The notes under the pieces: generated by a model
What the model was told of the DNA's origin: nothing
Seen by the model: the letters and a program-made list of their open reading frames with translations, nothing else
Database searches by the model: none
Translations under genes and position numbers: made by a program
Shown here: positions 923 to 14,525 of the stretch, one piece after another
Layout of the letters: every line of letters begins with the position of its first letter
Position numbering within the stretch: position 1 is the first letter of the stretch
Origin: Nostoc punctiforme PCC 73102
Lineage (GTDB): Bacteria > Cyanobacteriota > Cyanobacteriia > Cyanobacteriales > Nostocaceae
Assembly: GCF_000020025.1 (NCBI RefSeq)
Contig: NC_010628.1
Coordinates: forward strand, 1,440,001 to 1,472,000
Length of the DNA: 32,000 nucleotides
Reading direction: 5' to 3'

Positions 923-981
923 ACTACAAAATTTGTAGTATCCCCTTGACATTATGTAGAGTTCGTATTACATTTGTAGTA
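923..981 (+). promoter_or_regulatory. Candidate sigma70-type promoter with flanking operator-like repeats, upstream of the RNA/ORF array
   Basis: TTGACA at 946-951, a 17-nt spacer, then TACATT at 969-974. A perfect palindrome actacaaa-a-tttgtagt lies at 923-939. The 9-mer tttgtagta occurs at 932-940 and again at 973-981, bracketing the -35/-10 boxes. Confidence 0.4.
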
Positions 982-1055
982 TGAAAAGAAAAGCCTCCTC
1001 AAAGGCAAAACTAAAACCTCTCACAAGCTAGACAATTGCATAGATGCCACTGTTT

Positions 1056-1139
1056 GGGGCCGCGATTGGTGTTCGACTGCTCCGAAGCCAACAAACGGAC
1101 GGTTGCAGGATTCGGGTTCAATTCCCGACGGCTCCACTA
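1056..1139 (+). ncRNA. Minimal tmRNA tRNA-like-domain (TLD)-like RNA with no mRNA-like domain
   Basis: The 5' GGGGCCG (1056-1062) pairs 7/7 with 3' CGGCUCC (1129-1135), including a G3:U pair (alanine identity element). The T-arm UCGGG-UUCAAUU-CCCGA (1112-1128) abuts the acceptor 3' strand, followed by discriminator A1136. The 5' segment GGGGCCGCGAUUGGUGUUCGAC resembles the tmRNA 5' consensus GGGGCUGAUUCUGGAUUCGAC. The 3' segment ACGGAC...GGGUUCAAUUCCCGACGGCUCCACUA resembles tmRNA 3' ends. The interior is a short closed helix (CUGC/GCAG, CCG/CGG) where pseudoknots and a tag ORF would be. Confidence 0.55.
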
Positions 1140-1172
1140 GACTTGACTGCGGTTGAAGTTGTGTAGAGGCTT

Positions 1173-1382
<210 letters not shown>

Positions 1383-3104: not shown

Positions 3105-3202
3105 TCGCAATAGCGGCAGATATGATGGCAGCTTATGCAGCTACTACTTTTAGGGAGTAGTACCAACGATTTCGATACATTACATCAAAACTGGCAGTTG
3201 TT

Positions 3203-3274
3203 GCCGTGCCCCGATCGCAGAAGCTTACATAACTCTGCACAAGTTATACACAATGCTTCTACAACTTGCGCGGT
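3203..3274 (+). ncRNA. Y-RNA-like module Y5 (minimal: closing helix plus a single stem-loop)
   Basis: 5' GCCGUGCCCCGAUCGCAGAAGCUUACAUA pairs with 3' AUGCUUCUACAACUUGCGCGGU (GCCGUGC/GCGCGGU with G-U pairs, AGAAGC/GCUUCU). The interior is a single hairpin AUAACU-cugcaca-AGUUAU. Confidence 0.5.
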
Positions 3275-3302
3275 GACTTGATCGCCCCGCGTGCAACATC
3301 TG

Positions 3303-4770
<1,468 letters not shown>

Positions 4771-10967: not shown

Positions 10968-13900
10968 ATGACGCAGAAAGAGTTATTGCAACTGATAGAT
11001 CGTGCCGTGGCTGAGGGTTGGCGAGAGTTAGACTTGTCGGGGCAAGAGTTGACTGAGTTACCTGTGGAAATTGGTAAGTTGCAGCAGCTTGAGTCTTTGA
11101 TTTTGGGAAAGAAGGTTGAAGGTTATGAACGAGTAGGAGACCACTTTCTCGAAAAGGTTTCGGGCAACAATTTAAAAACGCTTCCACTGGAACTATTGGG
11201 TTTGCCTAATTTGCGTAAGTTGGATATTAGTGGCAATCCTTTAGAGAGCATTCCCGATGTGGTAACGCAAATACTGCATTTAGAGGAACTTATCTTAATT
11301 CGAGTAGAGCTAACTGAAATACCTGATGCGATCGCTAATTTAACCAATCTGACGCAGCTTATCCTCAGTTACAACCAAATAACCCAGATTCCAGAGGCGA
11401 TCGCTAAATTAAGCAATCTGACTGTGCTTATCTTCAGTGACAACAAAATAACCCAGATTCCAGAGGCGATCGCTAATTTAACCAATCTGACGCGACTTAA
11501 CCTCAGTTCCAACCAAATAACCCAGATTCCAGAGGTGATCGCTAAATTAACCAATCTGACGCTGCTTTACCTCAGTGGCAATCAAATTACTGAGATACCA
11601 GAGGCGATCGCGCAATTAACCAATCTGACGCTGCTTGACCTCAGTGACAACAAAATAACCGAGATTCCAGAGGCGATCACGCAATCAACCAATCTGACGG
11701 TGCTTGACCTCAGTAGCAACCAAATTACTAAGATACCAGAGGCGATCGCACAATTAACCAATCTGAAGCTGCTTTACCTCAGTGACAACCAAATTACTGA
11801 GATACCAGAGGCGCTCGCTAATTTAACCAATCTGATGCAGCTTCACCTCAGTAGCAACCAAATTACTGAGATACCAGAGGCGCTCGCTAATTTAACCAAT
11901 CTGACGCAGCTTTACCTCAGTGGCAACCAAATTACCGAGATTCCAGAGGCGCTCGCTAATTTACCCAATCTGACGCGGCTTTACCTCTATAGCAACCAAA
12001 TTACTGAGATACCAGAGGCGCTCGCTAATTTAACCAATCTGATCCAACTTGTCCTCTTTTCCAACCAAATTGCCGAGATTCCAGAGACGCTCGCTAATTT
12101 AACCAATCTGATCCAACTTGTCCTCTTTTCCAACCAAATTGCCGAGATTCCAGAGACGCTCGCTAAATTAACCAATCTGACGCGGCTTGACCTCAGATTC
12201 AACCAAATAACCCAGATTCCAAAGGTGATCGCTAATTTAACCAATCTGACAGAACTTCACCTCAGTAGTAACCAAATAACCCAGATTCCAGAGGCGCTCG
12301 CTAATTTAACCAATCTGACACAGCTTTACTTCAGTTCCAACCAAATAACCCAGATTCCAGGGGCGATCGCTAAGTTAACCAATTTGACGCAGCTTGACCT
12401 CAGTGGCAACCAAATTACCGAGATTCCAGAGGCGATTGAAAGTTTGTCGAAATTGGAAAAACTAGATTTACGGGGAAATCCGCTTCCTATTTCACCAGAG
12501 ATTTTAGGATCTTCTGATGATGTTGGTTCAGTTGAAGATATTTTCAATTACTTGCAATTACTCCGTAGCGGTGAAGTGCGTCCACTCAACGAAGCCAAAC
12601 TCTTGCTCATCGGACAAGGCAGCGTCGGCAAAACATCTCTCATCAAGCGACTAATCCGCAATGAATATGATGAGAAACAACCCCAAACCGACGGACTCAA
12701 TGTAGAAACTTGGAACGTGCAGGTCAATAGCAAAGACATCCGCCTGAATGTTTGGGACTTTGGCGGACAGGAAATTTATCATGCCACTCATCAGTTTTTT
12801 CTAACTAAGCGCAGCCTCTATCTCTTAGTCTGTAATTGTCGCACCAGCGAAGAAGAAAACCGCATCGAATATTGGCTGAAACTAATCGAAAGCTTCGGCG
12901 GAGAGTCCCCCGTGATTATCGTTGGCAACAAAAAAGACGAACAACCCTTGGACATAAACCGCAAGGCATTACGCGAAAAATATCCTAACATCCAAGAGAT
13001 TATCGAAACCTCCTGCCAAGATAATATCGGCATTGATGAACTTCGCACCGCCATTTTCCAGCAAGTCGGCAACCTCAAAGAAGTCTACGATCTTCTACCC
13101 CTGACATGGTTTGAGGTTAAACAACAACTCGAATCCATGCCCCAAGACTTCATCAGCTACAACCGCTACATCGGCATCTGCCACGAAAACAAAATTCCTG
13201 AAGAACAAAACCAAGATCAACTCATCGATCTCCTCCATCGGCTTGGCTTAGTTCTCAACTTCCGCGAGCATCCCATCCTCAAAAATACCAACGTCCTCAA
13301 ACCCAACTGGGTGACAGAAGGCATTTACGCGCTCCTGAGCGATGAAACCCTTAAAACTAAAACCAAAGGTATTTTCACCCCTGCCGATCTCACCCGCATC
13401 CTCAATTCAGAGCGCTACCCGACCGAACGTCATGGTTATCTGATCGAACTAATGAAGGAATTCGAGCTTGGCTTTGCACTAGAATGTCAGCCACCACAAT
13501 TTCTGATTGCGGGACTTCTGCCTAAAGACCAACCAGACAAAACAGAACTCCACGGCGAAACCCTGGAATTTCAATACCATTACAAAGTTCTCCCCGAAAG
13601 CATCATCTCCCGCTTCATCGTCAAAACCCACGAAAAAATTCATAACCAAATCTATTGGCGCAGTGGCGTAATGCTGCAATATCAAGAAAACAACGAAATC
13701 TACAACATTGCTCGGATCAAAGCCGATCCCGAAGACAAAAAAATCTTCATCACTATTAGCGAACGCCAAGAAACCCGCCGCTTATTTCTCGGCATCCTCC
13801 GCGATGTCTTCCAAAAAATCCACAAAAGTCTCCCCAATCTCGAAATCACCGAATGGGTTCCCGTCCCCAACCATCCCAAACATCCACCCCTCGACTACCA

Positions 13901-14525
13901 AGAACTCCTCGGACTCGAATCAATGGGTGAAAGTACAGTCATCATCGGCAAACTAAAATTAAAACTCGATTTGCGTCAACTACTTGATGGGTATGAAGAT
14001 ATAAGAACTCGACAAAGACAACAAATAGACAAAGGAATTATTGAACCATTCCCCATTAAGGAAAAAATTATGTCCGAAAGTATCAGAAACCAAATATTTG
14101 TTAGCTACAGTCATCAAGATGCAAAATGGTTAGCAGAACTGCAAAAACAACTAAAACCCTATATTCGTGCAGAAGGTTTGATCGTTTGGGATGACACCAA
14201 AATCAAACCTGGCGCAGAATGGAAAGCCGAGATTGAAAAAGCATTAGCCACGGCTAAGATTGCTATCCTGCTAGTCAGCCCTAACTTTATAGCCTCTGAT
14301 TTCATCGACAGACATGAACTTCCCCCCTTACTCAACGCAGCCGAACAAGAGGGATTAACAATTATCTGGATTCCAATTAGTGCAAGCTCATATAGAAAAA
14401 CCGAGATCGAAAAATACCAAGCTGCTCACCCTTCAAATAAACCCCTCGACAGTCTAAGTAAGGGAGAACGTAACCAAGCTTGGGTGAAAATTTGCGAAGA
14501 AGTCGAAGAGGCAATAAATTCATAA
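10968..14525 (+). CDS. ROCO-family protein with C-terminal TIR domain (LRR x ~20, Roc GTPase, COR, TIR)
   Basis: About 20 units of a 23-aa LRR (LTNLTQLxLSxNQITEIPEAIAx) are followed by a Roc GTPase with P-loop GQGSVGKT (12612-12635), DFGGQE and NKKD. A COR-like region comes next. The TIR domain runs from ~14094 (IFVSYSHQDAKWL...VWDD...ILLVSPNFIASDFIDRHELPPLL) and has a Glu at the position of the TIR catalytic glutamate. Confidence 0.9.
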   Translation: MTQKELLQLIDRAVAEGWRELDLSGQELTELPVEIGKLQQLESLILGKKVEGYERVGDHFLEKVSGNNLKTLPLELLGLPNLRKLDISGNPLESIPDVVTQILHLEELILIRVELTEIPDAIANLTNLTQLILSYNQITQIPEAIAKLSNLTVLIFSDNKITQIPEAIANLTNLTRLNLSSNQITQIPEVIAKLTNLTLLYLSGNQITEIPEAIAQLTNLTLLDLSDNKITEIPEAITQSTNLTVLDLSSNQITKIPEAIAQLTNLKLLYLSDNQITEIPEALANLTNLMQLHLSSNQITEIPEALANLTNLTQLYLSGNQITEIPEALANLPNLTRLYLYSNQITEIPEALANLTNLIQLVLFSNQIAEIPETLANLTNLIQLVLFSNQIAEIPETLAKLTNLTRLDLRFNQITQIPKVIANLTNLTELHLSSNQITQIPEALANLTNLTQLYFSSNQITQIPGAIAKLTNLTQLDLSGNQITEIPEAIESLSKLEKLDLRGNPLPISPEILGSSDDVGSVEDIFNYLQLLRSGEVRPLNEAKLLLIGQGSVGKTSLIKRLIRNEYDEKQPQTDGLNVETWNVQVNSKDIRLNVWDFGGQEIYHATHQFFLTKRSLYLLVCNCRTSEEENRIEYWLKLIESFGGESPVIIVGNKKDEQPLDINRKALREKYPNIQEIIETSCQDNIGIDELRTAIFQQVGNLKEVYDLLPLTWFEVKQQLESMPQDFISYNRYIGICHENKIPEEQNQDQLIDLLHRLGLVLNFREHPILKNTNVLKPNWVTEGIYALLSDETLKTKTKGIFTPADLTRILNSERYPTERHGYLIELMKEFELGFALECQPPQFLIAGLLPKDQPDKTELHGETLEFQYHYKVLPESIISRFIVKTHEKIHNQIYWRSGVMLQYQENNEIYNIARIKADPEDKKIFITISERQETRRLFLGILRDVFQKIHKSLPNLEITEWVPVPNHPKHPPLDYQELLGLESMGESTVIIGKLKLKLDLRQLLDGYEDIRTRQRQQIDKGIIEPFPIKEKIMSESIRNQIFVSYSHQDAKWLAELQKQLKPYIRAEGLIVWDDTKIKPGAEWKAEIEKALATAKIAILLVSPNFIASDFIDRHELPPLLNAAEQEGLTIIWIPISASSYRKTEIEKYQAAHPSNKPLDSLSKGERNQAWVKICEEVEEAINS
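11200..12500 (+). repeat. 69-bp-period coding tandem repeat array (LRR units)
   Basis: About 18 consecutive 69-bp units are highly similar at the DNA level (…aatttaaccaatctgacgcagctt…aaccaaattac[ct]gagat[at]ccagaggcg[ac]tcgct…). Confidence 0.85.
12021..12158 (+). repeat. Perfect 69-bp tandem duplication (2 x 69 bp) inside the LRR array
   Basis: 12021-12089 and 12090-12158 are identical (ctcgctaatttaaccaatctgatccaacttgtcctcttttccaaccaaattgccgagattccagagacg). Together they encode LANLTNLIQLVLFSNQIAEIPET twice. Confidence 0.95.

Follow-up and report, generated by a model that had tools for sequence, protein, structure and literature searches.

A predicted tag-less tmRNA gene in Nostoc punctiforme related to genes of cyanobacterial long tRNA arrays

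The DNA analyzed here is a stretch of 32,000 nt from Nostoc punctiforme PCC 73102 (the window). Coordinates are positions in this stretch, and L-numbers denote related loci that were fetched. An RNA element of 84 nt (GGGGCCGCGAUUGGUGUUCGACUGCUCCGAAGCCAACAAACGGACGGUUGCAGGAUUCGGGUUCAAUUCCCGACGGCUCCACUA) lies at 1056-1139 on the + strand behind a promoter and a leader, and is followed by a run of non-coding RNA genes to about 3275 and by the gene of a Ro-like protein. A preliminary description of the window had proposed that the element is a tRNA-sized form of transfer-messenger RNA (tmRNA) made of the tRNA-like domain (TLD) only. By its sequence, the segment 1056-1136 is such a TLD-only tmRNA gene, here called the mini-tmRNA. 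Its parts are as follows.

1056..1136, + strand: predicted TLD-only tmRNA (mini-tmRNA), from the mature 5' end to discriminator A1136 (RF00023 46.6 bits, covariance model R1 116 bits, covariation)
1056..1062, + strand: 5' strand of the acceptor stem, GGGGCCG, pairing with CGGCUCC at 1129-1135; G1058:U1133 is G3:U70
1063..1076, + strand: D-loop analogue without D stem, CGAUUGGUGUUCGA, with the conserved GG and the tmRNA-type UUCGAC
1077..1108, + strand: helix 2a (P2a) remnant and inner hairpin, from the RNAalifold consensus
1112..1128, + strand: T arm, stem UCGGG/CCCGA with the 7-nt loop UUCAAUU
1137..1139, + strand: 3' trailer CUA after the discriminator A (position 81); CCA is not encoded

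Structure of the element and its relation to tmRNA

The Rfam tmRNA model RF00023 aligned with the window copy from end to end (model positions 1-374; 46.6 bits, E = 1e-16 in a 2.6-kb search with permissive thresholds), and both halves of the TLD, 81 nt up to the discriminator A, are therefore present as had been described. In this alignment, 316 of the 374 model positions were missing and 24 nt stood in their place. RF00023 was the best model of the tRNA clan at the window copy and also at L091 (44.3 bits), L099 (38.5 bits), and the Anabaena copy in L081 (31.9 bits), and the tRNA model scored below the tmRNA model at these four independent loci. These results supported the proposed tRNA-sized, TLD-only form of tmRNA. 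One result counts against it. The gathering cut-off of RF00023 is 47 bits, the window copy lies 0.4 bits below this value, and the copies in tRNA arrays reach 31.9-44.3 bits. Because of this shortfall, the window element is absent from the default Rfam scan output. A tmRNA model and ARAGORN had been named in the preliminary description as checks; the first gave the end-to-end alignment but stayed under the cut-off, and the second predicted neither a tRNA nor a tmRNA in the window element.

The element shows the features of a tmRNA TLD, namely a 7-bp acceptor stem with G3:U70 (GGGGCCG/CGGCUCC, as had been noted before), a discriminator A, a T stem of 5 bp with a loop of 7 nt, and a D region that lacks a stem but carries GG and UUCGAC. 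Agreement with the tmRNA consensus is also seen in the 5' motif GAUUGGUGUUCGAC and at the GAC...GGA junction, and the covariance-model alignment placed the D-loop analogue on the consensus GAu.cuGGa.UUCGAC, with UUGG nearly invariant. P2a is formed by 1077-1080 with 1105-1108, and the region reads CUGC-UCCGAAGCC-AACAAA-CGGAC-GGUU-GCAG. Inside it, the inner hairpin pairs C1083 with G1101, G1084 with C1100, and C1088-C1089 with G1097-G1098, and its loop AACAAAC (1090-1096) falls within the invariant motif CGAARCCAACAAAYGGAC. The ACGGAC at 1095-1100, which had been read as a 3' tmRNA motif, sits in this hairpin, and the equivalent of the tmRNA GGAC is GGAU at 1108-1111. In the window element there is no mRNA-like domain with resume codon, tag frame, and stop; the 24 nt between the halves of helix 2a form a hairpin, and ARAGORN reported no tag peptide. 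None of the pseudoknots PK1-PK4 was found in it, and the sole remnant is the CGAAACC motif at the helix 2/PK1 junction. The preliminary description was thus right that a short closed helix joins the two halves in place of the tag-coding part and the pseudoknots.

Covariation was evaluated in 36 distinct copies from Nostocales, Leptolyngbya-type arrays, and Anabaena-type arrays. In these copies, 98.7% of the cells were paired, compared with 39-53% when the partners were slid by one to three columns. Seven base pairs vary on both sides with the pairing kept, and the observed covariation score was reached by none of 500 shuffles. Acceptor pairs 4-7 all covary (GC/GU/AU; CG/UA/AU; CG/GC/UA; GC/AU), and no change is seen in G1:C72 or G2:C71. 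Of the 36 copies, 35 have G3:U70, the exception being a copy with a damaged 5' end, and A73 is essentially invariant, as is the 18-nt core CGAARCCAACAAAYGGAC. In the T stem, the second pair occurs as CG (23 sequences), GC (10), or UA (3), and the closing U:A is changed into A:U in three. A U:A pair of P2a is likewise changed into A:U in three sequences. An independent RNAalifold run recovered the acceptor, P2a, and T helices and added the inner hairpin (C28:G46, G29:C45, and CC/GG around AACAAAC), which is backed by one compensatory change, from C:G to U:A at 1083:1101 in L052. A first model of this hairpin with a UCCG/CGGA stem and an 11-nt loop was rejected; it is broken by the Anabaena-type copies, and the L052 compensation fits the RNAalifold pairing. 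Compensatory changes occur in all three main helices across the Nostocales, Leptolyngbya-type, and Anabaena-type lineages, and the acceptor and T-arm pairing is therefore conserved in relatives, a point on which the preliminary description had made its proposal depend.

In 25 Nostocales loci, the mean pairwise identity was 94.7% for the element, compared with 61.6% for the 70 nt upstream and 56.0% for the 60 nt downstream. The thermodynamic fold of the window element by itself is unremarkable (z = -1.5). Despite this plain fold energy, the match lies far beyond chance, since homologues recur widely and seven pairs covary.

Canonical tmRNA (ssrA, RF00023) and the element have in common G3:U70, A73, the T arm, the stem-less D region with GG and UUCGAC, the GAC/GGA junction, and CGAAACC after helix 2. 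In contrast to canonical tmRNA, the window element has no resume codon, tag frame, or pseudoknots and cannot tag; the canonical gene is a solitary chromosomal one, whereas the mini-tmRNA belongs to a tRNA array. In Escherichia coli ssrA (the sequence was checked and was 100% identical to annotated ssrA genes), CGAAACC lies directly 3' of the 5' strand of helix 2. The motif is also found in the cyanobacterial copies and in the TLD-only gene of mycobacteriophage DS6A, and it takes the form (U/G)AAARCC-hairpin-GGAC in viral copies. Because it is shared by E. coli ssrA and the mini forms, it points to an origin of the mini-tmRNA from tmRNA by internal deletion of the pseudoknots and the tag template.

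Homologues in long tRNA arrays and in phages

The genome scan for related loci yielded 80 loci, mostly from Nostocales and all with a Ro-like gene. The covariance model R1, which was built from 25 distinct copies of the element, detected a full-length copy in 46 of these loci and a 5'-truncated copy in one more (L065). The genomic copies lie on the strand of the Ro-like gene and 1.4-3 kb upstream of it, and in L078 the distance is 5.4 kb across a tRNA array. A metagenome scan with the invariant core motif as query gave 22 loci, all of which were matched by R1, and a BLAST search of plasmids found a match in plasmid delta of Nostoc/Anabaena sp. PCC 7120. In total, homologues were found in 46 of the 80 genomic loci, 22 metagenome loci, and 3 plasmids. 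The copies in L093 and L103 have damaged 5' ends. The tail after the discriminator varies across copies (CCA, CUA, CUU, CUG, UUU, and UCC); ACCA is encoded in most array-embedded copies and ACUA in the window. In the position of the D-loop analogue, array-type copies carry GAUUGGCAUCAC instead of CGAUUGGUGUUCGA.

The Leptolyngbya plasmid L078 has 26 tRNA genes ahead of its Ro-like gene, and the element (87 bits) lies between tRNA-Arg(CCG) and tRNA-Cys(GCA). This position between tRNA-Arg(CCG/UCG) and tRNA-Cys(GCA), with spacers of 3-5 nt, is shared by L078, L083, L085, L091, L092, L093, L099, and L103; in L099, for instance, the Arg gene spans 1533-1607, the element 1612-1693, and the Cys gene 1697-1772. 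The Anabaena copy (L081:3596-3679; plasmid delta 51736-51819, minus strand; R1 79 bits) lies inside the published trn operon between tRNA-Glu(UUC) and tRNA-Tyr(GUA), and the L087 copy stands between tRNA-Glu(UUC) and tRNA-Tyr, as in plasmid delta. Arrays with as many as 34 tRNAs contain the element in 14 of the 22 metagenome loci, most commonly in the order Asp(GUC)-Glu(CUC)-Arg(CCG/UCG)-[element]-Cys(GCA)-Met-Trp. The homologues in L078, L081, L083, L085, L091, L092, L093, L099, and others lie on the same strand as at least 20 tRNAs, with tRNA-like spacing and in a conserved position, and the element keeps a fixed slot in intact arrays of 20-34 tRNAs. The sequences indicate that it is a conserved, unannotated gene of the mobile cyanobacterial long tRNA arrays (trn operon), which have carried it for a long time.

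In the window, the ordinary tRNA genes are absent and the array is reduced to tRNA-like elements. The region upstream of the mini-tmRNA contains two features.

934..982, + strand: trn-type promoter region, with TGTAGTAT boxes at 934-941 and 975-982, the related TGTAGAGT at 958-965, and TTGACA at 946-951
983..1055, + strand: leader of 73 nt with the conserved end ...UGCCACUGUUU just before G1056, the presumed RNase P site

The promoter consensus scan gave TTGACA-17-TACATT at 946-974. TGTAGTAT occurs twice in the window, both times in the promoter region, and it is the footprinted site of the repressor TrcR at the trn promoter of Anabaena, where it overlaps the -10 box (PMC10272220). The window therefore carries a trn-type promoter with putative TrcR operator boxes around -35 and -10. 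An alignment of promoter and leader showed homology of the window with the Anabaena 7120 trn operon and with the metagenome arrays. The leader aligns with the leaders before tRNA-Asp in full arrays (L081, L091, L093, and L099), and their common end TGCCACyTTTGGG stands directly before the first mature 5' end. Because the window leader aligns with leaders that run into tRNA-Asp, the locus is read as a reduced array, in which the first tRNAs were lost and the mini-tmRNA now comes first after the trn-type promoter.

In Anabaena sp. PCC 7120, the trn operon has been examined experimentally as a tRNA array that responds to stress. It is almost silent under normal conditions and is induced 100- to 1000-fold by ribosome-targeting antibiotics, and its single transcript is rapidly processed to RNAs of 70-100 nt (PMC8421152). 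The papers cited here on the operon (PMC8421152, PMC10272220) and a survey of tRNA arrays (PMC4758250) describe 26 tRNA genes and mention no tmRNA-like or extra tRNA-like gene, TROVE, or vWA. By our count, the ARAGORN and Rfam calls probably cover the "26 genes" of plasmid delta, and the mini-tmRNA would not be among them. It is apparently an overlooked gene in a studied operon and would tie the array directly to ribosome rescue. The organism is tractable, as trn and trcR deletion strains and induction conditions already exist.

A second RNA is regular in the long arrays. A YrlA-like RNA lies between tRNA-Trp and tRNA-Glu(UUC) (L099:1927-2052; L081:3416-3510), and one is also found at 2874-2998 in the window. 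Its tRNA-like core is closed by a GUGCCCUAA...CUUGCAC stem, and the "anticodons" assigned by ARAGORN shift (Pyl, Tyr, Ser, Leu, and Phe). In Anabaena 7120 this RNA is probably the gene listed as tRNA-Ser(CGA).

The mini-tmRNA is of a known kind. A "TLD only" tmRNA was reported from mycobacteriophage DS6A (tmRNA Website ID 11587; Mao et al. 2009, as cited in PMC4131195 and PMC11915505). We located the DS6A gene at JN698994.1 28478-28560 (L104), where RF00023 again aligned end-to-end (model 1-374) with the middle deleted. The two genes are alike in length (83 nt in DS6A and 84 nt in the window), in score (43.2 and 46.6 bits), and in the order of their parts, which are an acceptor stem with G3:U70, a D-analogue with UCGAC, P2a, an AAAACC-hairpin, the T arm, and A-CUA; R1 gave 50.5 bits in DS6A. 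Like the DS6A form, the window element is tRNA-sized (about 65-92 nt), joins both TLD halves by a short helix and hairpin, and contains the shared inner motif of P2a, (U/C)(G/A)AAARCC, hairpin, GGAC, and P2a'. Both are carried on mobile DNA in hosts that would have an ssrA of their own, and their acceptor stems GGGGCCG/CGGCUCC are identical. This identity is probably convergent, since array-type cyanobacterial copies have other acceptor sequences. The differences lie in the setting, as the DS6A gene is solitary in the phage and the window gene sits in a tRNA array or RNA operon under a stress promoter of host type, and in three details: the inner hairpin (CCAACAAACGG in the window, CCGCACGCGG in DS6A), GGAU before the T arm in the window instead of GCAC/GGAC, and the T-loop insertion in a subset of the cyanobacterial copies. 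Further genes of DS6A code for an RNA ligase of RtcB-like type (gp76) and for an HNH protein (gp97) (L104/L105), and RtcB-like ligase and HNH accessory functions have been linked to cyanobacterial tRNA arrays (PMC8421152).

The viral survey was one generic pattern scan of viral contigs (IMG/VR; L106-L225). Among the matches listed, TLD-only genes of 65-92 nt were found in at least 120 loci with 99 unique sequences; ARAGORN was silent on 116 of 120 and called a tmRNA in 4. When 10 viral examples were searched with RF00023, 9 aligned from end to end with 44-74.5 bits, and 7 exceeded the Rfam cut-off. The viral copies have AARRCC in 54 of 96 cases and GGAC before the T arm in 76 of 96. The matches listed are mostly solitary near terminase, portal, and capsid genes, and a tRNA occurs within 1.5 kb in 18 of 120. 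Clustering of the genes neighboring the viral mini-tmRNAs gave phage structural genes only (capsid protease, portal, and terminase) and no link to SmpB or alanyl-tRNA synthetase (AlaRS). With at least 120 viral loci, and most of those tested aligning end-to-end, TLD-only tmRNAs are, as far as sequence can tell, common in phages. Scanning the viral contigs with the cyanobacterial core motif gave no match, so the cyanobacterial lineage itself was not seen in viruses. TLD-only tmRNAs would accordingly be commoner than the literature suggests, in which one phage and a few organelles are reported. The 2025 tmRNA database contains nine "standard, no CDS" (no coding sequence) sequences overall and no tag-less form among 4090 cyanobacterial genomes. 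An annotation blind spot exists here, as ARAGORN misses nearly all of these genes and the cyanobacterial copies fall just under the Rfam cut-off.

Tag-less tmRNAs are further known from the mitochondria of jakobids and oomycetes, and two plastid forms of ~65 bp from Mallomonadaceae (PMC11915505, PMC4131195). Like the mini-tmRNA, the organellar forms are reduced to the TLD, lack a tag frame, and are presumed still to act with SmpB (PMC11915505). Unlike it, each of them is the sole tmRNA in its compartment, and their gene order is mostly permuted, while the mini-tmRNA is an accessory copy on mobile DNA and cyanobacteria normally carry a full-length standard or permuted tmRNA. The closest parallel in setting is found in Mycobacterium and mycobacteriophages, whose horizontally spread long tRNA arrays include tmRNA-family genes with HNH endonuclease and translation-rescue genes nearby (PMC5966550). 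Those arrays belong to another phylum, and their tmRNAs were found by standard tools and are therefore presumably full length, whereas the mini-tmRNA is the TLD alone and is missed by ARAGORN. Beyond the preliminary description, then, the element is assigned to a known kind of RNA and to the relic of a long tRNA array, rather than to the Ro-like locus as such.

Proposed role and competing explanations

In the best explanation of these data, which we judge to be rather probable, the TLD-only tmRNA of the trn array would be excised, alanylated, and bound by SmpB, and would compete at stalled ribosomes without tagging. Sequence evidence carries the identity, conservation, array membership, and promoter homology from which this explanation starts. 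Established knowledge of tmRNA and tRNA processing suggests how processing, charging, binding, and competition might follow. As in the Anabaena trn operon, the cluster would be repressed by TrcR and transcribed when translation is impaired. The tRNA-processing enzymes would excise the RNA, with RNase P cutting at G1056, 3' trimming after A1136, and addition of CCA. AlaRS may charge the mini-tmRNA through G3:U70 and A73, and SmpB and EF-Tu may bind the charged form. It would then compete with full-length tmRNA or replace it at stalled ribosomes, where no tag would be possible. The net effect could be an inhibition of trans-translation via SmpB titration; in E. coli, a TLD-only molecule strongly inhibits tmRNA, perhaps in this way (Mao et al. 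2009, as cited in PMC4131195). This gives the decoy role that the preliminary description had put forward an experimental precedent. The net effect could also be ribosome rescue without tagging, as proposed for the mitochondrial tag-less tmRNA.

Besides the score below the Rfam cut-off, several findings weigh against this explanation. The full-length element is missing from 33 of the 80 loci with a Ro-like gene, which speaks for dispensability, and L005 and L028 show a clean deletion in which the same promoter and a shortened leader are joined directly to the next RNA gene. An insertion of 22-44 nt interrupts the T loop in 12 of the 46 full-length genomic copies and in 7 of the 22 metagenome copies, including copies in intact arrays. 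The T loop then reads U[ACCCUnCGGGAAGGCAAAGCCUA]CAAUU instead of UUCAAUU, and a 44-nt version occurs as well. Such an insertion should disturb the elbow that contacts the ribosome, which argues for either a role off the ribosome or tolerated decay, and the D-loop/SmpB side is possibly disturbed too. Furthermore, UUCGAC is changed into AUCACC in array-type copies and the GGAC by the T arm into GGAU, and because of these departures from the consensus the SmpB contacts may differ. Taken with the loss of the element in many Nostoc lineages, the insertions and these departures argue against action at the ribosome.

Both acceptor-sequence lineages include alleles that carry the insert and alleles that lack it. 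At the same loop position, this insert is also found in other tRNA-like elements (L098:7490-7540 and the third Y-like RNA of L069, 4205-4250, and of L071, 4130-4175), a related insert lies at ~1907-1950 in the window, and further insert sites are L001:3388-3493 and L083:6277-6380. The insertion could be a mobile one that targets T loops or a functional extension of the elbow.

Loss and damage would also be seen if the element were a decaying relic, that is, a functionless tmRNA or tRNA-Ala pseudogene in a degenerating tRNA array, transcribed or not. The window array has lost nearly all of its tRNAs, the element is gone from 33 of 80 related loci, the L065 copy is truncated and the L093 and L103 copies are damaged at the 5' end, and the T loop is interrupted in roughly one copy out of four. 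Moreover, no RNA was detected from three genes of the Anabaena operon, which were taken as pseudogenes (PMC8421152). We nevertheless consider decay quite improbable. The element is 95% identical between flanks of about 60%, and compensatory changes have kept its three main helices across lineages. Hardly any variation is seen in G3:U70, A73, and the 18-nt core, the element keeps its slot in intact arrays of 20-34 tRNAs, and the same architecture has been kept independently in many phages.

The mini-tmRNA could alternatively belong to a Ro ribonucleoprotein (RNP), as a Y-RNA-like or substrate-like ligand of the downstream Ro60-like protein, for example a tRNA mimic that recruits an effector. 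Nostoc-type loci have kept the element, the Y-like RNAs, and the Ro-like gene and have lost the true tRNAs, and the same T-loop insertion is found in the element and in Y-like RNAs of the cluster. The bacterial YrlA RNAs are likewise tRNA mimics upstream of a Ro60 orthologue, beside rsr (PMC4201824; bioRxiv 10.1101/312249), and that of M. smegmatis is cut by RNase P and CCA-tailed (PMC4201824). YrlA, however, mimics the D and T arms, is closed by the Ro-binding stem, and mostly has no free acceptor that could be aminoacylated, whereas the mini-tmRNA has a free 7-bp acceptor at its ends with AlaRS identity and no D stem. The paired GUGCCCUAA...CUUGCAC stem common to the five Y-like RNAs of the window is absent from the element. 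The element also occurs in arrays that have no Ro-like gene nearby (L081, which is Anabaena plasmid delta, and L093) and is missing from many loci that have the gene, and in L075 and L059 it is directly followed by the small open reading frame (ORF) of the cluster. The tethering to a Ro-like RNP that the preliminary description had considered therefore seems very unlikely, and the link to the Ro-like protein is one of neighborhood rather than of demonstrated function.

We see an equally small chance that the tRNA-like fold serves as processing punctuation, an entry site at which RNase P and RNase Z would release the 5' end of the polycistronic transcript as well as the RNAs behind it. The element is the first structured one of the window transcript, 75-80 nt after the promoter, and in the arrays it has spacers of 3-5 nt within a rapidly processed transcript (PMC8421152). 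Any tRNA would suffice for this purpose, however, and the arrays already hold dozens. The tmRNA-specific D-analogue, the invariant G3:U70, and the inner hairpin shared with solitary phage copies would remain unexplained, and only 18 of the 120 viral matches listed have a tRNA within 1.5 kb. A role as a processing handle, also raised in the preliminary description, is possible in itself but leaves the invariant inner hairpin unexplained.

Three further candidates were rejected. A fragment of ssrA left by island integration does not fit, since both TLD halves are present, as had already been argued against a mere duplication of the ssrA 3' end, and the 84-nt unit recurs in many genomes; a tRNA-Ala gene or pseudogene does not fit with the tmRNA model outscoring the tRNA model, the missing D stem and 7-nt anticodon loop, the silence of ARAGORN on all ~70 copies, and the retained CGAAACC junction motif; and a part of a larger Y RNA does not fit with the flanks being ~60% identical against 95% in the element and with the varying downstream neighbor.

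A broader reading goes beyond competition of the mini-tmRNA at stalled ribosomes, and we regard it as tentative and rather doubtful. The mobile long tRNA arrays may be "translation emergency kits" that combine spare tRNAs, a tag-less tmRNA, a YrlA-like RNA, often a Ro60-like protein, and the TrcR stress switch. If so, the mini-tmRNA would either free stalled ribosomes while sparing the nascent protein or shut down SmpB-dependent tagging. The T-loop insertion would be a functional lengthening of the elbow that also occurs in the Y-like RNAs and that might, for instance, dock a partner of both. In phages, RNAs of this class would be widespread and would regulate trans-translation without having been recognised.

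Surroundings of the element in the window

The other features of the cluster are listed below.

~1205-1335, 1660-1849, 1859-2021, 2874-2998, and 3202-3275: five putative Y-like RNAs with a shared closing stem
1172..1380, + strand: composite RNA, the next gene of the cluster, read from the sequence
3337..4770, + strand: putative divergent Ro60/Rsr-like protein of 477 aa at the end of the cluster, with an all-helical N-terminal part and a C-terminal vWA domain

The five RNAs share the closing stem type GUGCCCUAA...GAAAAAGCU / AGCUUUUUC...CUUGCAC, and two of them contain tRNA-like domains (1232-1303 and 2900-2972) found by ARAGORN and Rfam. In the composite RNA, the minimum free energy fold pairs the outer ends (z = -2.8). 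Its outer tRNA-like frame consists of an acceptor GGGUCUG/CAGAUCC with G3:U70, a D arm, a T arm AUCGG-UUCAAUC-CCGAU, and A-CUA. A Y-RNA-like stem (GUGCCCUAA ... CUCGCAU) replaces the anticodon arm and carries the inner tRNA-like domain 1232-1303 (ARAGORN and the Rfam tRNA model). This RNA is kept in 8 of 10 aligned Nostoc loci.

Two conserved ORFs lie between the RNA genes, at 1441-1650 (69 aa) and 2145-2867 (240 aa), and neither had a match in Pfam, NCBIfam, PHROGs, or PADLOC. By tblastn, the 69-aa ORF was found in 80 of the 103 fetched loci, including positions inside or after full arrays (L078:4165-4371 and L092).

Across many cyanobacteria, the identity of the Ro-like protein exceeds 80%, and vWA is its only Pfam domain. 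A phmmer search against the PDB with the single sequence matched the TROVE domain-containing proteins 9l5y and 9kop (E = 4e-4), and a PDB profile search with 31 homologues found nothing. The AF2 (AlphaFold2) model has low confidence (pLDDT 64), and its top 10 Foldseek matches in the PDB were all Ro60/Rsr over nearly the full length (E ~3e-8). On the basis of the phmmer match and the fold search with this low-confidence model, the label "Ro-like" appears reasonable for a divergent relative, and it is plausible that the five RNAs are Y-like RNAs.

An insertion sequence (IS)-like element occupies 1-861, with terminal inverted repeats of ~30 bp (cagctggcgaatagggggtc...). Its DUF772/DDE transposase ORF is truncated, and ~70 bp separate the insertion from the promoter of the RNA cluster downstream. 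The rest of the window holds unrelated genes for two-component sensors and for TIR-LRR-Roc-COR, RTX, and CHAT/TPS proteins. One of them, at 10968-14525, encodes an LRR-Roc-COR protein of 1185 aa with a C-terminal TIR and lies 6 kb downstream of the RNA cluster after the two-component sensor genes. Its NLR-like architecture is suggestive of a defence or signalling protein.

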